From positions 76,202-140,201 of the forward strand of contig DFYO01000019.1 of the NCBI GenBank assembly GCA_002381865.1: a DNA stretch of 64,000 nucleotides. The letters are read 5' to 3'. Source of the stretch: Clostridiales bacterium UBA4080. Its GTDB lineage: Bacteria > Bacillota > Clostridia > Lachnospirales > Vallitaleaceae. The translations under genes were made by a program, and so were the position numbers. The notes beneath the pieces are model-generated. The model saw nothing but the letters and a program-made list of their open reading frames with translations. It was not told the origin of the DNA and searched no databases. Each line of letters starts with the position of its first letter. The first letter of the stretch is position 1. Positions 1 to 19,790 of this stretch are shown piece after piece.

Positions 1-1343
<1,343 letters not shown>

Positions 1344-1468: not shown

Positions 1469-1810
1469 TTATAAGAAACAAGAAAGAACGAAACCACCAA
1501 AAGTACCACCAAGAATTGCAACGATTAAGTTAACAAATCCTTTTCCGAAATCTGCTTTATCTACTACTACGTTTGCAACGAATAAACCTGAGCCAGCTGC
1601 CCATGCCATATCGATCCAAGCTGAATCTGGCATTTGATAAATCATACCAACACCATGATTAAGTGACCAAGTAGTACCAACGATAAATCCTGCTGCTAAC
1701 CATCCGCCGATAGGTCCAAAAGTATCACAAAGTTTCCCCCAGCCTAGTCGAATGAAAAATGGAAATATAAATCCCCCAAAAAATGTAGCTAATGCTAATT
1801 GTGCAGTCAT
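1469..1810 (-). CDS. small polytopic membrane protein, paralog of 1831..2181; putative glycerol-uptake subunit
   Basis: 113 aa, Gly/aromatic-rich TM segments. The core GGWLAAGFIVGTTWSLNH...IDMAWAAGSG aligns with GGWFAGFAIISGMWFLNH...VDMACGIAVAG of the neighbour. Sits between glpP and glpK. Confidence 0.6.
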   Translation of the reverse strand: MTAQLALATFFGGFIFPFFIRLGWGKLCDTFGPIGGWLAAGFIVGTTWSLNHGVGMIYQMPDSAWIDMAWAAGSGLFVANVVVDKADFGKGFVNLIVAILGGTFGGFVLSCFL

Positions 1811-1830
1811 TTAAGTTTTCCTCCTTTTAA

Positions 1831-2181
1831 TTAGTTTGATTTTGCTAAATGATTTTGAATTAAACCTGCAGTAATACCACCACAGATACCACCAAGAACA
1901 ACTAAGCCTAAAGTTGGAGCTGCGTTTCCTACTTTATCCCATCCGTTCATAAATCCATCACGAGTTGTTCCAGCCACAGCGATACCACAAGCCATGTCTA
2001 CAAATGCTCCATCATTGTTGATAATGCCAATAAAGTGATTTAAGAACCACATACCACTAATAATAGCAAAACCTGCAAACCAACCTCCAGCGATACCATA
2101 CGCGCCAGCAAAAGCTCCCCAAACGCTCATAACAAAAATACCTGCTATTGCTGTTCCTAAAAATGTACCTACATGTTTCAT
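1831..2181 (-). CDS. small polytopic membrane protein, paralog of 1469..1810; putative glycerol-uptake subunit
   Basis: 116 aa, same W-x-LNH / DMA motifs as the neighbour. SD GGGAGG upstream of the ATG. Confidence 0.6.
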   Translation of the reverse strand: MKHVGTFLGTAIAGIFVMSVWGAFAGAYGIAGGWFAGFAIISGMWFLNHFIGIINNDGAFVDMACGIAVAGTTRDGFMNGWDKVGNAAPTLGLVVLGGICGGITAGLIQNHLAKSN

Positions 2182-9164: not shown

Positions 9165-10532
9165 TTACACGTTTTCTATAATTCTTGCAACATGAATTCC
9201 ACTCGCGGCTGCTTGAGATAATGAATGCGTAACTCCCGAGCAGTCTCCCAAAACGTAGAGTCCTTTCACATTGGTTTCAAGGTTTTCATCTACTTCAATA
9301 TTTGAATTGTAAAATTTAACCTCAACACCATATAATAGTGTATCTTCATTTGCAGTCCCTGGTGCAATTTTATCCAATGCATAAATCATCTCAACAATAT
9401 CATCTAACTGTCTTTTTGGTAAAACCAAGCTCAAATCCCCAGGAGTTGCATTTAACGTTGGATTTAAAAACGACTTTAGCATCCTTCTTTCACTACTTCT
9501 TCTTCCTTTTACAAGATCTCCAAAGCGTTGCATCAAAACTCCGCCTCCTAGCATATTACTTAATCTTGCAATTGATTCGCCATATTCATTGCTGTTTTTA
9601 AAGGGTTCTGTAAATTTACTGGAAACTAGCAAAGCAAAATTTGTATTTTCTGTATGAAGTGCCTCTTCTGAATAGCTATGCCCATTTACCGTTACAATAT
9701 CACCGTAATTCTCAGTTACCACTTCTCCGTAAGGATTCATACAGAAGGTTCTTACTACATCATTATATTTTTTTGTCTTGTAGACAATTTTACTTTCATA
9801 CACATCATCTGTAATGTGTTTGAAAACCAAAGCCGGTAATTCAACTCTTACACCTATGTCTACTCGGTTATTAGTTGTTTTAATATCAAATTTTTCGCAT
9901 ACCTTTCCAATCCATTTTGAACCAGTTCTTCCTGTTGCAACAATTAGCTTTTTTGTTTCAAAGGTTTCTTCCTTTGTAGCTACATAGAAAGTATCCTTTT
10001 GTTTTTCTACATTTGTAACCTCAGTTTCAAATCTTATATCAATTTTATCTTTTATATATTGAAACATATTTTCTGCAATAACAAGATTTCTATCTGTACC
10101 TAGATGTCTTACTTTTGCATCCAACAAATGAAGGTCATGCCTTAATGCTTCTGTTTTCAGCTTACTGTTTTCTGTAGAATAAAGCTTTGCCTCTCTTCCT
10201 CCCATTGCAAGATTAATATCATCAACCTCCCACATCAAGCTAATAGCCTTATCTCTTCCAACAAATTTATACAGTTCTCCTCCAAAATTGTTTGTAATAT
10301 TAAATTTACCATCCGAAAAACCTCCCGCCCCATAGAAGCCTTCCATAATGCTGCAGCTTTTGCATTTACATTCAGTTATTCTTGGATTAATAGTTTTTGG
10401 ACATTTTCTTCTATCTAAAGGATAGCCCTTTTCTAGCATAAGGATTTTTTTATTGGTCCCGCTTTTTACTAACTCATAAGCACAAAATACACCTGCCGCA
10501 CCTGCACCCACTATAATCAAATCATACATCAT
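9165..10532 (-). CDS. FAD-dependent oxidoreductase (COG2509-like)
   Basis: N-terminal dinucleotide fold DLIIVGAGAAGVFCA, C-terminal GLYVLGDCSG. Start placed at the ATG at 10532, 5 nt after GAGG. Confidence 0.7.
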   Translation of the reverse strand: MMYDLIIVGAGAAGVFCAYELVKSGTNKKILMLEKGYPLDRRKCPKTINPRITECKCKSCSIMEGFYGAGGFSDGKFNITNNFGGELYKFVGRDKAISLMWEVDDINLAMGGREAKLYSTENSKLKTEALRHDLHLLDAKVRHLGTDRNLVIAENMFQYIKDKIDIRFETEVTNVEKQKDTFYVATKEETFETKKLIVATGRTGSKWIGKVCEKFDIKTTNNRVDIGVRVELPALVFKHITDDVYESKIVYKTKKYNDVVRTFCMNPYGEVVTENYGDIVTVNGHSYSEEALHTENTNFALLVSSKFTEPFKNSNEYGESIARLSNMLGGGVLMQRFGDLVKGRRSSERRMLKSFLNPTLNATPGDLSLVLPKRQLDDIVEMIYALDKIAPGTANEDTLLYGVEVKFYNSNIEVDENLETNVKGLYVLGDCSGVTHSLSQAAASGIHVARIIENV

Positions 10533-10769
10533 ATACACCTCGATTTCTTGTATTCTTTTATCTATTTGTTTTAATTTTTATTAAAAGCTCCACTGAAAAT
10601 TATATCAAATTATATTAAAATTGTATATCAAAAATAACTGTTTTCTATTTTGTTTGTCAATAATTACATAGTAACAATTTGTATTTTTCTATGACCCTTA
10701 GGGTTTCATTCGCCTTCCCATGCACATCGTGTGCATAAGGGAAGGCGTTATTTGTGACCACAAAGAACC

Positions 10770-10820
10770 AAAAAAGAAAAGAGCCTGCGATAGCTTTGTC
10801 AGCAATATTCGCAAGCTCTT
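10770..10820 (-). terminator. rho-independent terminator of dhaK
   Basis: AAGAGC-TGCGA...TCGCA-GCTCTT two-tier stem followed by TTTTCTTTTTT on the minus strand. Confidence 0.7.
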
Positions 10821-10882: not shown

Positions 10883-11878
10883 TTAGTTTTGTACAAATGC
10901 AGGTGTATCTGCTGGTGCAAATAACAATTCTTTTAATTCTGCATCTAATTTCAATATTGAAATTGAAAATCCTGCCATATCCAATGATGTCATATAGTTT
11001 CCAACAATTGTTTTTGCAACTTTAATTCCTTTTTCAGCTAAAACTTCAGCAACTCTTAGGTTTGCAACGTATAGCTCCATTACAGGAGTTCCGCCTAATC
11101 CATTTACTAATACTGCAACCTCGTCACCGCTTGCAGGTTTTAAATCTTCAAGAATTTTTTCTAACAAATGATCAACTGTTTCATTTGCTGAACGCAATGT
11201 TTCTCTATGTGTTCCTGGCTCACCATGAATTCCCATTCCGATTTCAACTTCATCTTCACCAAGAACGAAGCTTGGTTTTCCAGCTGCTGGAACAGTACAG
11301 GTGGTTAATGCCATACCCATTGATTTAACATTTGTAATAACTTTTTCTGCAACTCTTTTCACTTCATCTAAGTCTGCTCCAGCTTCTGCCTTAGCTCCAG
11401 CAATCTTATGCACTAAAACAGTTCCTGCAATACCTCTTCTGCCTGTAGTCCATGTACTGTCTTCAACTGCAACGTCATCATTTACAACTACGTATTTAAC
11501 ATCAATTCCTTCTTCTGCTGCCATTTCTGCTGCCATTTCAAAGTTCATAATGTCCCCTGTGTAATTCTTAACTACCAATAAAACCCCTTTGCCGCCATCA
11601 ACTGCTTTTACTGCTTCAAATACCTGGTCAGGAGTAGGTGATGTAAATACAGCTCCTGCAACAGCTCCATCGAGCATTCCTTTTCCAACAAAACCTCCAT
11701 GTGAAGGCTCATGTCCACTTCCACCACCACTAACCAATGCAACTTTTGCTTGTGGCGCATTCGCTCTTACAAGCACTTCAAATCCTTCAACTCTCTTTAC
11801 ATAGCTCGGATGTGCTGCCACAATACCTTTAAGCATTTCATCAACTACATTGTCTGGATTGTTAATAATTTTTTTCAT
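10883..11878 (-). CDS. dhaK: dihydroxyacetone kinase subunit DhaK
   Basis: VALVSGGGSGHEPSHGGFVGKGMLDGAVAG is the Dak1 signature. Start at MKKIINN (11878) with an AGGAGG SD. Confidence 0.95.
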   Translation of the reverse strand: MKKIINNPDNVVDEMLKGIVAAHPSYVKRVEGFEVLVRANAPQAKVALVSGGGSGHEPSHGGFVGKGMLDGAVAGAVFTSPTPDQVFEAVKAVDGGKGVLLVVKNYTGDIMNFEMAAEMAAEEGIDVKYVVVNDDVAVEDSTWTTGRRGIAGTVLVHKIAGAKAEAGADLDEVKRVAEKVITNVKSMGMALTTCTVPAAGKPSFVLGEDEVEIGMGIHGEPGTHRETLRSANETVDHLLEKILEDLKPASGDEVAVLVNGLGGTPVMELYVANLRVAEVLAEKGIKVAKTIVGNYMTSLDMAGFSISILKLDAELKELLFAPADTPAFVQN

Positions 11879-11894
11879 TTTGCATCCTCCTGGT

Positions 11895-13616
11895 TTAATT
11901 AATATCATTTATATTACTAGCAACAATCGTGCCAGTTAATAGTTCCTTAATCTTAGAAGCTTGATTATATGACATAATACTTTCTACAAATTGCTTTTCT
12001 GCCTTAGATTCTATTATTTGCTCTTTGATTTTCGGTATTGATGGGGCGCTCATACTTAGCTCATCTATGCCCATTCCAACAAGTAACCTTGTCATAATAG
12101 GGTCTCCAGCCATTTCACCACATATTCCTACCCATTTTCCGTTTTCATGTGCTGCCTCTGAAACCTTTTTAACAAGCCTCAAGATTGCAATATCAAAATG
12201 CGAATATAGCTTGCTGATTTTTTGATTTCCTCTGTCTACAGCTAATGTATATTGAACTAAGTCGTTTGTTCCAATACTGAAAAAGTCAACCTCCTTAGCA
12301 AATACATCCGCCATAATTGCCGCTGCCGGTGTTTCAACCATAATGCCAAGTTGTATATTTTCACCATACTTTACGCCTTCATTATCAAGTTGCTTTTTAG
12401 CTTCTTCAATTATTTCTTTTGCTTTATTTATTTCTTCAAGGCTGATTATCATAGGCAGCATTATAGCTACCCTTCCATAGGCAGAAGCTCTTAATATAGC
12501 TCTTATCTGAGTAATAAAAATATCTGTTCTTTCCAAACTTATTCTAATAGCACGAAATCCTAGAAACGGGTTTTCCTCTTTGCCTATTTCCAAATAAGAT
12601 AGAGGCTTGTCTCCTCCAATATCAAGCGTCCTTATAACGCATAATTCGTCTTTTAGCTTTTGCACTACATATTTATATGCTTCAAACTGTTCTTCCTCTG
12701 TAGGAAGTCTTTTTTTACCCATAAATATAAATTCTGTCCTAAAAAGCCCGACACCCTTACAGCCGTATTTCAAAGCCTCATCAATATCCTCCGGATTACC
12801 TATATTAGCAGCCAGAATTATTTCTCTGTTATCCTTGGTAATTGCCGGTATTTCATTTAAGCTCATATAATATGCCTTCTTCTTTTCCTCTTCCTTAAGC
12901 TGCTTATTATATTTGTCAATGCTATCTTTGTCTGGCTTCAATATAAGACTTCCATTATAACCGTCAATAATTGCAACATCTTCCTTACTATAGTCGCCTA
13001 TTTCTTCTCCAACGCCAACAACTGTTACAATGTTTTTAGATTTGGCAATAATTACCGCATGAGATGTAGTGCTTCCATTCCCCATAACAATTCCTGCAAT
13101 TTTTTCTTGTGGAAGATTTGCTACAACCGAGGGTTCAATTTCTTTGCCGTATAAAATAATATTATCCTGCTCAAAAACATTTTCCTCTATTCCCAAAATA
13201 ATTTTTAATACTCTTTTTGAAATATCCTTAACATCAACAGCTCTTTCTCTTAAATAAGGATCATCAAGGGCTCCCAGCATATCCGATAATTCTTTTGCTA
13301 CATTTATTATAGCTGTCGGAGCGCAGATATCAGCTTCAATTTGCTGTAAAGTCCCATCATAAAACATTGGATCCTTAAGCATAAGCATGTGTGCTTCCAT
13401 AATATCAGCCTGCTCTCTTTCATCCTCTTTTTTAGCTTTAATCAATATCTCGCTGAGTTGTTTTTCAGCTATAGCGATAGCTTGGTTTAATTTTTGTTTC
13501 TCCTGTTCAGAATCACCCTTTTGATAGGTTTTTAGCTCTTCTTCAAAGCTATCCCTTAATATCATAATTCTGCCAATACCAATACCTTCAACCACGCCCT
13601 TGCCTTTGAACTCCAT
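11895..13616 (-). CDS. ptsI: phosphoenolpyruvate-protein phosphotransferase (PTS enzyme I), full length
   Basis: Active-site region GSTTSHAVIIAKS, FFSIGTNDLVQYTLAVDR, GICGEMAGDP. Start at MEFKGKG (13616) after a GAGGTGG SD. Confidence 0.93.
   Translation of the reverse strand: MEFKGKGVVEGIGIGRIMILRDSFEEELKTYQKGDSEQEKQKLNQAIAIAEKQLSEILIKAKKEDEREQADIMEAHMLMLKDPMFYDGTLQQIEADICAPTAIINVAKELSDMLGALDDPYLRERAVDVKDISKRVLKIILGIEENVFEQDNIILYGKEIEPSVVANLPQEKIAGIVMGNGSTTSHAVIIAKSKNIVTVVGVGEEIGDYSKEDVAIIDGYNGSLILKPDKDSIDKYNKQLKEEEKKKAYYMSLNEIPAITKDNREIILAANIGNPEDIDEALKYGCKGVGLFRTEFIFMGKKRLPTEEEQFEAYKYVVQKLKDELCVIRTLDIGGDKPLSYLEIGKEENPFLGFRAIRISLERTDIFITQIRAILRASAYGRVAIMLPMIISLEEINKAKEIIEEAKKQLDNEGVKYGENIQLGIMVETPAAAIMADVFAKEVDFFSIGTNDLVQYTLAVDRGNQKISKLYSHFDIAILRLVKKVSEAAHENGKWVGICGEMAGDPIMTRLLVGMGIDELSMSAPSIPKIKEQIIESKAEKQFVESIMSYNQASKIKELLTGTIVASNINDIN
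11919..11934 (-). promoter_or_regulatory. sigma-54 (-24/-12) promoter in front of dhaK, inside the 3' end of ptsI
   Basis: Minus strand reads TGGCACGATTGTTGCT (TGGCAC-N5-TTGCT). It ends ~40 nt upstream of the dhaK ATG. Confidence 0.7.
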
Positions 13617-13626
13617 AAATCCACCT

Positions 13627-13893
13627 CTAGTCTTCATAAAAATTATTTGTAATCAAGGTATCCAAGGCTTCTATTGCTTTATCTTCATCTGCTCCTTCTA
13701 CTGCTACTGTCAGCTCCTGGCCTGTTTTAATACCCAAAGACATAATCATCAATAAGCTTTTGGCATTTGCTTTTTTATTATTCCCAAGCAAGGTAATATT
13801 GCTTATATATTGAGAAGAAATTTTTGCAATTTCAGCTGCTGGACGAGCATGTATCCCCAGCGAATTAATTATTGTATATTTATTCTGTTTCAT
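13627..13893 (-). CDS. ptsH: HPr phosphocarrier protein
   Basis: GIHARPAAEI (His15 motif) and AKSLLMIMSLG (Ser46-like). Start at MKQNKY (13893) with a GGAGG SD. Confidence 0.9.
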   Translation of the reverse strand: MKQNKYTIINSLGIHARPAAEIAKISSQYISNITLLGNNKKANAKSLLMIMSLGIKTGQELTVAVEGADEDKAIEALDTLITNNFYED

Positions 13894-13935
13894 TATATAG
13901 TCCTCCATAATTCTTTGAGCAAAAACCTCAGAGCG

Positions 13936-14334
13936 TTATTGAAGCTTTAGTACCTCTCTTGCTAGCTCTGCTGCTTCAATTACTTCATCAATATTTCCTC
14001 CGATAAATGCTTGTACAGCTGCACTTATAGAGCCTTCCATAACTGGAGCGTCTGCAATTTTTGCGTCAATTTTTACTCCCGCTTCTTCTAAAAGTTCAAT
14101 AGCCAGATTAGCACTTAATACCGCACTTCCTAAATCTACAAGAATTACAACGCCTTCTCCGGTATCCGCCATTCTTATAGCCTCGCTGATTCTAACAGCA
14201 TCAGTTCCAATTCCTCCATCCTCCATTCCTCCTGCAGAAACTATTTTCTGATTCGGACCTGCCATTTGCATAGAAAGCTCTGCAATTCCTTCTGCAACCT
14301 TTTTACTATGAGACACTATTACGATTCCAACCAC
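13936..14334 (-). CDS. dhaM: dihydroxyacetone kinase phosphotransfer subunit DhaM (EIIA-Man-like domain only)
   Basis: MVGIVIVSHSKKVAEGI, an EIIA-mannose-type His motif. 132 aa, sits between dhaL and ptsH. Confidence 0.85.
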   Translation of the reverse strand: MVGIVIVSHSKKVAEGIAELSMQMAGPNQKIVSAGGMEDGGIGTDAVRISEAIRMADTGEGVVILVDLGSAVLSANLAIELLEEAGVKIDAKIADAPVMEGSISAAVQAFIGGNIDEVIEAAELAREVLKLQ

Positions 14335-14336
14335 AA

Positions 14337-14972
14337 TTAGCCCTCCATTCCATTTGCTTTATAGTAATCCGTTGCAGCCTTGAGCATAATGTAAAAAGAC
14401 GTTGCACCCGGATCCTGATGTCCAATGCTTCTATCTCCCAAATAGCTTGCTCTTCCCTTTGTAGCTCTGATTGTTTTAGTAAATTCAATTCCTTCCTCGG
14501 CAGCCTTTAAAGCTAAGTCCAGACAATCAGCAATACTTTTACCTTGCTCATGAGCACTTTTTAATGCTTCAATTGCTGGTTCAATTGCATCTATCATAGT
14601 CTTCTCACCCTTAACTGCTTTACCTCTGTCTTTTATTCCAGTTAGTGCAGCTGTCAGCATTTTTTCCATAGCTGTCAAGTCAATTGTTTCTTGCCCCACA
14701 GCTTCTGCTCCCGCTTTCATAAATGCAGTTCCGTATAAAGGACCCGAAGCACCTCCAACTGTAGAAATTAAAGTCATACCCACTTTTTTTAATGTAGCGC
14801 CAACATCCTTATCTTCATCAGTAATCTTAGGAACAACCGCATTGAAGCCTCTAGCCATATTAATACCATGGTCAGCATCTCCTATTGCTCCATCAAGCTC
14901 AGTAAGATATTCTTTGTTTTTAGTAATCTCTTCATTCACAGCCTTTAAGTAGCCATTAATATTTGTTGCCAT
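14337..14972 (-). CDS. dhaL: dihydroxyacetone kinase ADP-binding subunit DhaL
   Basis: LDGAIGDADHGINMARGF, GGASGPLYG (Dak2). Start moved to MATNING (14972), preceded by GGAGG. Confidence 0.9.
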   Translation of the reverse strand: MATNINGYLKAVNEEITKNKEYLTELDGAIGDADHGINMARGFNAVVPKITDEDKDVGATLKKVGMTLISTVGGASGPLYGTAFMKAGAEAVGQETIDLTAMEKMLTAALTGIKDRGKAVKGEKTMIDAIEPAIEALKSAHEQGKSIADCLDLALKAAEEGIEFTKTIRATKGRASYLGDRSIGHQDPGATSFYIMLKAATDYYKANGMEG

Positions 14973-15041: not shown

Positions 15042-15057
15042 AGCAAGAAGTGTGCCA
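15042..15057 (-). promoter_or_regulatory. sigma-54 (-24/-12) promoter in front of dhaL-dhaM-ptsH-ptsI
   Basis: Minus strand reads TGGCACACTTCTTGCT, starting 1 nt after the stop codon of the EBP gene. Confidence 0.75.
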
Positions 15058-17143: not shown

Positions 17144-17159
17144 AGCAAGAATCGTGCCA
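17144..17159 (-). promoter_or_regulatory. sigma-54 (-24/-12) promoter in front of the EBP gene
   Basis: Minus strand reads TGGCACGATTCTTGCT. It ends ~43 nt upstream of the EBP ATG at 17101. Confidence 0.75.
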
Positions 17160-17203
17160 AGTATTATTTGACTTTTTTTCTTGCTATCTGTTAATTATCT
17201 TCT

Positions 17204-17237
17204 TATTTAGATAAAGTTGTCAATAATTATCTAAATA
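17204..17237. promoter_or_regulatory. perfect 11-bp inverted repeat, candidate enhancer (UAS) site
   Basis: TATTTAGATAA-N12-TTATCTAAATA. The centre lies roughly 60 nt upstream of the -24 element at 17154..17159. Overlaps the rpoN stop codon. Confidence 0.4.
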
Positions 17238-18580
17238 TATTCCCTTCTTTTATCTGCTGCCATTATTCCAAGCTGACTTCTGTATTTTGCTACTGTTCTT
17301 CTGGAAATCTTCATGCCTTCTTGCTGAAGCTTCTCAACTATCATCATGTCGCTCAGTGGCTCTCTCTTATTTTCAGCTTTAACAATACTTAATATTGCTT
17401 GCTTTATGCTATCAGAGGAATTATCCTGTTGAATATTTTTCCCAACGTTTTTGCATGAAAAAAAATATTTCAGAGGGTACAATCCCCATTTACACAGGAG
17501 ATATTTATCATTTATTGCTCTGCTAACAGTGGATTCATGCATTTGTGTAATATCTGCAACGTCTTTCAAGTTTAGAGGTCTTAAAAAGCCTTTTCCTTTT
17601 TCAAAAAAATCCTTTTGCTGTTTAGCCAATACCTCTGCAATTTTTTCTAAGGTGTCGTTTCTCTGATTAATGCATTTTAATAGCCAACTTGCATTACTGT
17701 AATTATCACCCAAATACTTTACCAGCTCTTTATCTTGAGTTAATTTCAAATATTTACAGTATTCTGTGTTTATCTTTATATTTGGAATATTTGCTTCATT
17801 TATAGAAATAACCAACCCCATTTCACCTTGTTCAATCACAATATCAGGCTTGATATATTGAGTAATTCCAGAGTAAAATGAAGCTCCTGGCTTAGGATTA
17901 AGCATTTTTATTTCTCGAATAAGCTCCTGTGTCTCAGCTATTTCAATTCCCAGTTCTTCTGCTATATGCTTGATTTTATTATCAGCAATCTTTTCCAAAT
18001 ACTTATCAGCAAGCAGATATGTCAATGTATTCTTTTTCCCCTGATTTTCAAGCTGTATCAGCAAACACTCTCTTAAGCTCCTAGCCCCAACTCCTGAAGG
18101 CTCCATCTTTTGTATTATTACCACAGCCTTCTCTGCTGATTTTTTATCACATCTGAGTTTTTTTGTAATTTCCTCAAGCTCAAAGCTTAAATATCCTTTT
18201 TCATCTAAGCTTTCAACAAGAAATTCTACTATCAATTTAGTTTTTTTATCTAGTTTAAGAAATATTAATTGTTCTTTGAGGAACTCTGATAATGTTTGTT
18301 TAATAAACGATTCATCCTTTATTTCATTTGAAAAATCCTGGTCGTCTTGTCCCTTTTTGTTTTTATGCTTGTAATAATCCGCATCCTCCTGATTCCTTTG
18401 TATTAAAACAGAGCTTTTATCTGATTGTTCGTCATATTCAAGTGCAGGATTACTTAATATTTCTTCATGAATCATTTCTGACAATTCTTCGTTGCCTAGC
18501 TTTAAAATTTTTAATGAATATTCCATTTTTGGCGTCAGTATTAAGTTTTGGGAGTAAATCATATCCATATCAAAATTCAT
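17231..18580 (-). CDS. rpoN: RNA polymerase sigma-54 factor
   Basis: Region I LILTPKMEYSLKILKLGNEELSEMIHEEILSNPALE. C-terminal RpoN box HESTVSRAINDKYL. Confidence 0.93.
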   Translation of the reverse strand: MNFDMDMIYSQNLILTPKMEYSLKILKLGNEELSEMIHEEILSNPALEYDEQSDKSSVLIQRNQEDADYYKHKNKKGQDDQDFSNEIKDESFIKQTLSEFLKEQLIFLKLDKKTKLIVEFLVESLDEKGYLSFELEEITKKLRCDKKSAEKAVVIIQKMEPSGVGARSLRECLLIQLENQGKKNTLTYLLADKYLEKIADNKIKHIAEELGIEIAETQELIREIKMLNPKPGASFYSGITQYIKPDIVIEQGEMGLVISINEANIPNIKINTEYCKYLKLTQDKELVKYLGDNYSNASWLLKCINQRNDTLEKIAEVLAKQQKDFFEKGKGFLRPLNLKDVADITQMHESTVSRAINDKYLLCKWGLYPLKYFFSCKNVGKNIQQDNSSDSIKQAILSIVKAENKREPLSDMMIVEKLQQEGMKISRRTVAKYRSQLGIMAADKRREYI

Positions 18581-18596: not shown

Positions 18597-19790
18597 TTAT
18601 CCCTTTTTAATAGGAAGCCTTATCAAAAAGCTGCTCCCTTGATTTTCTTCACTTTGAGCTTCAATTTCTCCCCCATGCTTATTAACAATAATGTCATAAG
18701 AAATACTTAATCCAAGCCCCGTTCCTCTTTGAGAGGCTTTAGTTGTGTATAGCGGATTGAATATCTTTTCTAGATTTTCGTTATTTATTCCCGGTCCGTT
18801 ATCAGATATTCTAATGCAAACATATTCACTTTCTTTATAGGCATTTATATGTATATGCCCTCGGTCTTCACGATACTGTTTTCTTATTGCTTCAATTCCA
18901 TTAAGCATAACATTCAAGAAAACCTGTCCTAGCTGACTTGAATTTGCCCATATCTCCGGGAGCTTATCTATTTCTTTTGTAATATCAACCGAATCCTTAG
19001 CCTCATTTGCAATAACTATAATTATTTGATTAATAAGACTTTCAATATCGCATATATCATATTCATTTTTAGCCTTTGCCCAAGACAGGTTCAAAAGCGA
19101 TTGAATTATCTGTGAAACCTTTTCTAAAGAGTCCTTTGAGGAATCTATGATCAAACGTACTTCTTCAAAATTCCCCTCTTCAAATTCTCCTTTTTTAACC
19201 TTCTCACAGTAATTTGCCAGCTGTTGAAGATTAAGATACGCTTTTTCAATAGGTTGGTTTATTTCATATCCTATCCCCGCTGCAATCTCTCCAATATTAG
19301 ACATTTTTCTTGATTGCACCAAATGAAACTGTGCATCCTCTAAGAGCTTGTTGGCAATTTTCAGTTCTTCATTTTGACCCTTTACAACCTCCAGCATTTC
19401 TCTAAGCATTCTTGTATTGGCCCTTGTTCTTGCTGCTGCACTAACTCTGGCTTTAAATTCAATTATTTCTATAGGCTTTTGAATATAATCATTTGCTCCG
19501 TATTCAAAGCATGATTTTAAGCTCTCCTTATCATCAAGGGATGTTAACATAATAATCTGAATATCGTTAAATGCATCAATATCACGTACATTTCTAAGAA
19601 CTTCAATTCCGCTCATTTCTGGCATAATAATATCAAGCAAAAGAATATCTATTGCTTCTGTTTCTAATATTCCGATAACATCTTGCGGCCTTTGGCACAA
19701 GATTCCCGTATAATCATTAAAATAGGTTTTCAGATAACCGTCAGCAAACTTTAAATTTAGTTTGTCATCATCTACTACCAGCACTCTCAT
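18597..19790 (-). CDS. REC domain fused to a histidine-kinase-like core whose H-box His is replaced by Tyr
   Basis: REC: VVDDD, LLLDIIMPEMSG, MLTS, IQKPI. H-box position reads AAGIGYEINQPI. The N, G1 and G2 boxes are intact (NVMLNGIEA, DNGPGI, GTGLGLSIS). Confidence 0.8.
   Translation of the reverse strand: MRVLVVDDDKLNLKFADGYLKTYFNDYTGILCQRPQDVIGILETEAIDILLLDIIMPEMSGIEVLRNVRDIDAFNDIQIIMLTSLDDKESLKSCFEYGANDYIQKPIEIIEFKARVSAAARTRANTRMLREMLEVVKGQNEELKIANKLLEDAQFHLVQSRKMSNIGEIAAGIGYEINQPIEKAYLNLQQLANYCEKVKKGEFEEGNFEEVRLIIDSSKDSLEKVSQIIQSLLNLSWAKAKNEYDICDIESLINQIIIVIANEAKDSVDITKEIDKLPEIWANSSQLGQVFLNVMLNGIEAIRKQYREDRGHIHINAYKESEYVCIRISDNGPGINNENLEKIFNPLYTTKASQRGTGLGLSISYDIIVNKHGGEIEAQSEENQGSSFLIRLPIKKG

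Follow-up and report, generated by a model that had tools for sequence, protein, structure and literature searches.

A probable self-contained, sigma-54-dependent dihydroxyacetone kinase cassette with its own EI-HPr phosphorelay in Clostridiales bacterium UBA4080

In E. coli, dihydroxyacetone (DHA) is phosphorylated with phosphoenolpyruvate (PEP) as donor by the DhaK-DhaL-DhaM system, in which DhaM is a fusion of an EIIA domain, an HPr domain and a truncated N-terminal domain of enzyme I (EI), and the general EI and HPr of the phosphotransferase system (PTS) are still needed; the regulator of this system, DhaR, binds DhaK and DhaL and is controlled in this way. DhaKLM of Lactococcus lactis represents the Firmicute type, with a single-domain DhaM (EIIA-Man only) that is fed by a separate HPr. 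Here we describe a DHA kinase locus with a DhaM of the latter type, located in a 64-kb stretch of DNA (the window) from the genome of Clostridiales bacterium UBA4080 (Vallitaleaceae; contig DFYO01000019.1, positions 76,202–140,201). Unlike the system of this locus, DhaKLM of L. lactis uses the housekeeping EI and HPr, which are encoded elsewhere, and its regulator is a TetR-type activator, DhaS, with the DhaK paralog DhaQ as co-activator.

The most similar regulatory arrangement has been predicted by Nie et al. (2019, BMC Genomics 20:565, PMC6615313), who delineated a "DhaQ" group of PTS_HPr-PAS-PAS activators from Acetobacterium, Clostridium and Geosporobacter with the predicted targets "dhaKLM, ptsI" (e.g. 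CA_C3088 with ptsI and Cbei_2147 with dhaKLM). Sigma-54 promoters were predicted for ptsI in C. acetobutylicum, C. botulinum, C. perfringens and C. kluyveri and for dhaKLM in C. beijerinckii, and the enhancer of the group was given as TTGATA-N4/5-TATCAA, 200–400 nt upstream of the target (PMC6615313). For Mesorhizobium loti and Bradyrhizobium japonicum, Comas et al. (2008, PMC2405797) described dha clusters that contain separate ptsH and ptsI genes, and Haloferax volcanii possesses a cytosolic DHA-type PTS operon (HVO_1543-1546), the same system being cited in Haloquadratum walsbyi (PMC2841640).

In the window, the minus strand carries, in this order, rpoN, a gene for an enhancer-binding protein (EBP), dhaL, dhaM, ptsH, ptsI and dhaK, together 9.7 kb (Table 1). 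The locus is probably a self-contained, sigma-54-dependent DHA kinase cassette with a PEP phosphorelay of its own, whose EI and HPr belong to a dedicated lineage and form the sole PTS relay of this genome. The identities of the genes were established by Pfam and NCBIfam profile scans of the window proteins, and the catalytic residues were read from alignments to the E. coli proteins, in which all those known for these families turned out to be retained. EI exhibits His189, Arg296, Arg332, Arg358, Glu431, Asn454, Asp455 and Cys502, and its length of 573 aa recurs in independent metagenome gene calls; DhaK exhibits His56, Asp109 and the DHA-binding His218. The HPr-like domain of the EBP retains the equivalent of His15 in the alignment, this His is present in the EBP of all cassettes analyzed (see below), and the sigma-54 contact loop of the EBP reads GSFTGA. 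The true start of dhaL is the ATG at 14972, preceded by GGAGGA, and that of dhaK is the ATG at 11878, preceded by a Shine-Dalgarno sequence, AGGAGG, which lies between the promoter P_dhaK and the ATG.

Table 1. Features of the rpoN-to-dhaK cassette and its flanks. Positions are those of the window; identity is that of the homologs from genera g7 and g11 to the window protein.
Feature	Position	Strand	Identity (g7 and g11)	Remarks
Receiver-kinase hybrid	19790..18597	-		5' of rpoN
rpoN (sigma-54)	17231..18580	-	39-44%	TIGR02395 408 bits; head of the cassette
Candidate control region	17194..17231	-		inverted repeat GATAATTATTGACAACTTTATC overlapping sigma-70-like TTGACA-18-GATAAT; 11/12 consensus match; predicted function
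P_ebp	17144..17159	-		TGGCACGATTCTTGCT; zero mismatch; 43 nt before EBP start
EBP, 680 aa	15059..17101	-	67-70%	HPr-like (PF00381, aa 6-89), two PAS, PF00158 AAA+ 244 bits, HTH_50
P_dhaL	15042..15057	-		TGGCACACTTCTTGCT; zero mismatch; right after EBP stop, 70 nt before dhaL ATG
dhaL, ADP-binding subunit	14337..14972	-	70-74%	TIGR02365 248 bits; D30, D35, D37, H38 present
dhaM, 132 aa	13936..14334	-	73-78%	EIIA-Man only; TIGR02364 129 bits (cut-off 98); H9 present
ptsH (HPr), 88 aa	13627..13893	-	69-76%	PF00381 95 bits; H15, R17, S46 present
ptsI (EI), 573 aa	11895..13616	-	59-61%	all three domains; TIGR01417 610 bits
P_dhaK	11919..11934	-		TGGCACGATTGTTGCT; zero mismatch; in final ptsI codons (...GTIVA...), 41 nt before dhaK ATG
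dhaK, substrate-binding subunit, 331 aa	10883..11878	-	89-91%	TIGR02363 510 bits (cut-off 406); PF02733 462 bits
Terminator-like hairpin	10770..10819	-		AGAGCTTGCGA...TCGCAGGCTCT + T-run; read from sequence; ends dhaK unit
FAD-dependent oxidoreductase (FAD-depend_C family)	9165..10538	-		directly 3' of dhaK; own sigma-70-like promoters; family without assigned function

As in E. coli, the enzymes encoded here would make up a DHA kinase that depends on PEP, and its K and L subunits as well as its catalytic residues are those of the E. coli system; in contrast to E. coli, a complete relay of separate proteins is encoded, and an HPr-like domain is part of the activator. The genes dhaM, ptsH and ptsI are three open reading frames with their own starts and stops, and no EIIA-HPr-EI fusion chain is present. 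DhaM matches only positions 1–129 of the 473-position model of E. coli DhaM, while HPr matches positions 156–241 and the N-terminus of EI positions 275–471, and thus the gene order dhaM-ptsH-ptsI is colinear with the domains of the E. coli fusion. The gaps dhaL-dhaM, dhaM-ptsH, ptsH-ptsI and ptsI-dhaK amount to 2, 42, 10 and 16 nt, respectively, and neither reading of the sequence nor a pattern scan revealed a terminator at any gene junction, including ptsI-dhaK; the hairpin downstream of dhaK escaped the pattern scan because its loop exceeds the limit of the scan. A previous reading of the letters and open reading frames of the window alone (the original prediction) had proposed the order dhaL-dhaM-ptsH-ptsI-dhaK for positions 10883–14972, which the profile scans bore out, these positions extending from the dhaK stop to the dhaL start. 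It had described DhaM correctly as an EIIA-Man-like domain only, as opposed to the E. coli fusion, and the separate HPr and the complete, catalytically intact EI that it had placed inside the operon are indeed found there, with the His15, the His189 and Cys502, and the three EI domains.

With the DhaQ-group regulon this cassette shares the PTS_HPr-PAS-PAS-AAA+-HTH (helix-turn-helix) architecture of the activator, a -24/-12 promoter at the adjacent dha or ptsI genes, and possibly a palindromic enhancer core of the GATA/TATC type, to which one palindrome, before the EBP gene, is related. It differs in that both target sets are merged (dhaL-dhaM-ptsH-ptsI followed by a separate dhaK unit), that ptsH is included, that rpoN stands at the head, that three promoters are present, and that the EI is a cassette-specific paralog rather than the housekeeping EI. 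The rhizobial dha operons likewise contain unfused EI and HPr genes in a DHA kinase cluster, as extra paralogs beside other EIs, but they belong to another phylum, exhibit another gene order and another type of regulation, and no sigma-54/HPr-domain activator has been reported there. In the haloarchaeal system the relay also serves a DHA kinase, and H. walsbyi lacks membrane EII systems, but the host is an archaeon, and the regulation and the gene order are different. We found no description in the literature of the exact cassette, with rpoN at the head, dhaLM-ptsHI followed by dhaK, and a third promoter over the 3' end of ptsI, nor of a genome with its entire PTS and its entire sigma-54 apparatus on one cassette. 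However, the design principle, i.e. a private relay for DHA kinase under the control of sigma-54 and an HPr-domain EBP, is already predicted in the literature, and what the present locus adds is a better model case rather than a new principle. The statement of the original prediction that the arrangement would be unusual, whether the EI and HPr are general or dedicated, was therefore overstated: the layout is the conserved one of the clade, being present in 10 of 35 genomes of the family, it corresponds to a catalogued Clostridiales regulon, and unfused ptsH and ptsI occur in the rhizobial dha operons. The original prediction had also named an outcome that would count against it, namely a common, already characterized layout with ptsHI transcribed constitutively from another promoter; the layout did turn out to be common and catalogued (as a prediction), but there is no sign of a separate constitutive ptsHI promoter.

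The inventory of PTS proteins in this genome (2.24 Mb in 76 contigs, completeness score 100%) is as follows: there is one EI, the other match being a PPDK-like protein of 883 aa, and four matches to the HPr domain, namely the cassette HPr, the N-terminus of the EBP and two proteins without His15, so that the cassette ptsH encodes the only stand-alone HPr with His15. The search for further copies of ptsH and ptsI, which the original prediction had suggested as a check, thus found none besides the cassette EI and the His15 HPr. HMM searches detected no PTS_EIIC (PF02378), EII-Sor (PF03609), EIIA_1 (PF00358) or EIIA_2 (PF00359) in the genome, and DhaM is the sole match to EIIA-Man (PF03610). Likewise, tblastn searches of the genome with the glucitol and ascorbate components of E. 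coli and with the EIIA/B/C and the PRD regulator of relatives gave no matches, and no PRD domain was found in the genome. GlpK (window 3–1337, minus strand, extending in contig C53) lacks, in the respective loop, the His that is phosphorylated by HPr in enterococcal and bacillary GlpK, and therefore the glycerol kinase is probably not controlled by HPr here. Given this lack of EII, of any EIIA but DhaM, of PRD and of the GlpK His, only DhaM and, plausibly, the HPr-like domain of the EBP can be recognized as acceptors of phosphoryl groups from the relay. General EI and HPr serve several sugar EII permeases, none of which was found in this genome. The original prediction had left open whether the EI and HPr are the general PTS proteins of the cell or a dedicated paralogous pair, and both descriptions hold in part: the pair is dedicated according to phylogeny (see below) and it is also the only pair of the genome, with no sugar EIIs to serve. 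The sigma-54 apparatus is equally confined to the cassette, since a single rpoN (one tblastn match) and a single sigma-54 EBP (the AAA+ part matches only itself) were found in the genome, both of them in the cassette.

One of the two HPr-domain proteins without His15 is a Crh-like paralog of 85 aa (C57:3165-3422), in which His15 is exchanged for Glu (GFESRP) whereas Ser46 is retained. Its gene follows rapZ/yvcJ-yvcK-whiA, the same neighborhood as that of crh in B. subtilis. HprK is present in the genome as well (C31:57806-58312), and the Crh-like protein and HprK could carry the Ser46 regulation, so that the HPr of the cassette would be free for phosphoryl transfer via His.

The survey of relatives covered 61 genomes, 35 of them from the same family. 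EI was found in 49 of the 61, often in 2–6 paralogs, DhaK in 30 and rpoN in 23. Of the 35 family genomes, 10 contain the full order rpoN-EBP-dhaL-dhaM-ptsH-ptsI-dhaK; they represent 4 genera and include three groundwater metagenome-assembled genomes, HGW-Firmicutes-2, -3 and -7. Each of these cassettes begins with rpoN, and 7 of the 10 genomes have no other rpoN. The regions on either side of the cassette vary between genera, hence the conserved unit extends from rpoN to dhaK. The identities to the window proteins are lower in genus g3 than in g7 and g11 (Table 1). In a tree of 66 EI sequences (IQ-TREE short search, LG+C20), all ten cassette EIs group together in a single clade (SH-aLRT 100), while the second EI copies of the cassette-bearing genomes G010, G015, G019 and G031 fall into a housekeeping-type clade that includes the EIs of Bacillus and Gemelliphila. 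Since the cassette EIs are monophyletic and the housekeeping copies of the same relatives belong to a separate clade, the cassette EI is a dedicated paralog. These second copies and other EI paralogs of the relatives each adjoin their own gene for an HPr with His15, and they are found in substrate-specific operons, such as those for a PTS of the fructose type or for one of the ascorbate/galactitol type that is accompanied by a DhaK/L-like pair. Thus, EI/HPr pairs are commonly embedded in operons in this family, and the window carries the pair specific for dha, the only one that this small genome has kept. In the family EI and HPr are often operon-specific and not "general", which matters for genome annotation and for metabolic models.

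As a separate observation, EI paralogs are numerous in some relatives (G010, G015, G019, G031 and others; loci L103-L142), with up to 5–6 per genome, most of them with their own HPr. Recoding of an in-frame TAG in some of the relatives' EI paralogs was considered and rejected, as the probable true start follows shortly after the stop, which therefore reflects an alignment overhang. Faster evolution of the cassette EIs is not claimed either, the path lengths between genera being similar in the cassette and the housekeeping clades. A recent transfer of the dhaK segment, which might be suspected from the high identity of DhaK (89–91%) and of the FAD protein (87%) as compared to EI (~60%), was rejected, because in every gene the synonymous third positions have come close to saturation (30–54% identical); the difference in identity therefore reflects purifying selection.

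The analysis of promoters was carried out with the pattern TGGCAC-N5-TTGCW over the window and with the looser TGGCAY-N5-TTGCW over the whole genome. The window contains three zero-mismatch sigma-54 promoter matches, each of the form TGGCAC-N5-TTGCT, all of them on the minus strand and all at this locus (P_ebp, P_dhaL and P_dhaK). Only ~0.03 perfect matches per window are expected by chance, as estimated from the base composition, and therefore the original prediction was right, at the level of sequence, in placing dhaK behind a sigma-54 promoter of its own. The -24/-12 elements before dhaL and before dhaK are both kept in 10 of 10 cassettes. The dhaK element lies within the 3' codons of ptsI in this genome, in G013 and in genus g11, and between the genes, in spacers of 150–450 nt, in G006 and in genus g3. 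Its retention in either coding or intergenic DNA despite the saturated synonymous sites is good evidence of selection acting on the DNA motif. Counterparts of P_ebp were identified before the EBP gene in g7 and g11 and before rpoN-EBP in g3. In genus g3 (L090 of G011, L095 of G024) a putative autoregulatory sigma-54 promoter is found 5' of rpoN itself, and hence sigma-54 would drive its own gene together with that of the activator.

The candidate control region with the inverted repeat GATAATTATTGACAACTTTATC is located just upstream of P_ebp, and genus g11 exhibits a related element, GGTAATAATTACC, upstream of the EBP gene, with the TGACAAC element recurring beside it; enhancer-type elements GGTAATAATTACC and GATAATTTACC occur in relatives. 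A scan for the published TTGATA-N-TATCAA enhancer motif yielded many weak matches in AT-rich DNA, and a recurring match, TTGATAGAGGAAATCAA, was not counted, because it encodes the universal EI motif VDRGNQ. A second, sigma-70 promoter for ptsH and ptsI was also considered and rejected, since the region contains 28 matches versus 24.3 +/- 5.1 in shuffled sequences, none of them before ptsH. The looser sigma-54 pattern has nine matches in the genome, of which, outside the cassette, only one resembles the cassette promoters. This fourth cassette-like promoter, GTGGCACGCTTCTTGCTTAT, is located outside the window (contig C76:7595-7612, plus strand), directly after the gene of an HTH protein of 405 aa whose C-terminus is GpsA-like and ~500 nt before the gene of a membrane protein of 247 aa. 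The single activator may have an additional target here, or a non-coding RNA may start at this site.

Based on the functions of the respective protein families, phosphoryl groups would flow from PEP to His189 of EI, His15 of HPr, His9 of DhaM, the ADP bound by DhaL and, finally, to DHA held by His218 of DhaK, yielding dihydroxyacetone phosphate. The motifs suggest that sigma-54 and the single HPr-PAS-PAS activator would fire all three promoters: P_ebp is predicted to confer autoregulation on the EBP, and P_dhaL to drive dhaL-dhaM-ptsH-ptsI as one transcript. Because there is no terminator between ptsI and dhaK, dhaK would be read from both P_dhaL and P_dhaK, and such a two-promoter reading would raise the level of DhaK over that of the relay proteins. 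The sigma-70-like promoter TTGACA-18-GATAAT before the EBP gene could supply the basal level of activator for the loop. As to the signal, the most likely mode of control would be that EI phosphorylates the HPr domain of the activator while the phosphoryl groups are not drained; DHA would drain the relay and thereby alter the activity of the activator, so that the cassette would sense its own substrate via flux. A bolder proposal, possible but at present doubtful, is that sigma-54 serves here as a private sigma factor of a minimal PTS with DHA as the sole substrate, and that EI and the HPr-like domain of the activator make up a PEP-driven flux-sensing pair, similar to a two-component system built from PTS parts. 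If this were true, the cassette would provide a natural minimal model for turning the phosphorylation state of a PTS into transcription and a model for the idea that the phosphorylation of DHA was an early function of the PTS. The cassette represents a natural stripped-down PTS, composed of PEP, EI, HPr, one EIIA, one soluble kinase and one HPr-domain sigma-54 activator. As neither sugar permeases that would compete nor PRD regulators nor another EI were found, in vitro reconstitution and genetics would be unusually clean and could address the questions of how an HPr-domain activator reads the phosphorylation state and why dhaK needs its own promoter.

Other explanations of these data have to be considered. 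Perhaps EI and HPr belong to the ordinary, general kind of PTS proteins, with further acceptors such as unrecognized EIIs or regulatory targets, and their linkage to the dha genes is incidental? The genome has no other EI and no other HPr with His15, HPr keeps Ser46 in the presence of HprK, and in several Clostridium species the general ptsI is a predicted target of the homologous activator. Yet no EII permease, EIIA beyond DhaM, PRD or GlpK target His was found in the genome, EI groups with the cassette EIs and apart from the housekeeping EIs of those relatives that have both, and the Crh-like protein is available as a substrate of HprK, which renders this explanation distinctly unlikely. The element at the 3' end of ptsI, in turn, might not be a working promoter at all but a motif kept for another reason, with dhaK being the last gene of a single dhaL-to-dhaK operon. 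The 16-nt gap without a terminator, across which read-through alone could express dhaK, agrees with such a view, as does the lack of an enhancer site assigned upstream of P_dhaK in the window; we nevertheless regard it as very unlikely, considering the perfect consensus 41 nt before the dhaK ATG, with the Shine-Dalgarno sequence in between, and its presence in 10 of 10 cassettes, either in coding DNA or in a spacer, while the synonymous sites of the same genes are so poorly conserved.

It also seems unlikely, albeit conceivable, that the substrate of DhaKLM is not free DHA but another small ketose or aldose, or that DHA is delivered by an unrecognised enzyme such as the FAD-dependent neighbor. 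No homolog of glycerol dehydrogenase of the GldA type is encoded in the genome, the FAD-dependent oxidoreductase is conserved directly downstream of the cassette here and in G013, and relatives possess other DhaK/DhaL-like pairs beside non-DHA PTS operons. However, DhaK scores far above the cut-off of the DhaK equivalog model (510 versus 406 bits) and retains the DHA-binding His218 together with His56 and Asp109, and the FAD gene does not flank the cassettes of g11 and g3. The interpretation of the locus as a self-contained DHA kinase cassette with a dedicated relay has its own weak points, among them the above-mentioned lack of GldA. An EII could conceivably be hidden in an assembly gap between the 76 contigs, although completeness scored 100%, and HPr Ser46 and HprK make a regulatory role beyond DHA possible. 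Moreover, a scan of the window for GRTAA...TTAYC gave only the palindrome that precedes the EBP gene and none assignable to P_dhaL or P_dhaK, and it is a guess in which direction phosphorylation would act on the activator.

Concerning the genomic context of the substrate, the gene of the FAD-dependent oxidoreductase directly 3' of dhaK in G013 encodes the 87% identical protein mentioned above, and in G006 it is located 4 kb away. The glp cluster of the window contains the genes of two membrane paralogs of ~115 aa (1469–2181, minus strand), whose homologs are encoded directly after dhaK in G024 (L095:13285-14000, plus strand); one pair of these proteins, when compared, exhibited 47% identity (E = 5e-32). 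A role of the ~115-aa membrane paralogs in the uptake of glycerol or DHA fits these locations.

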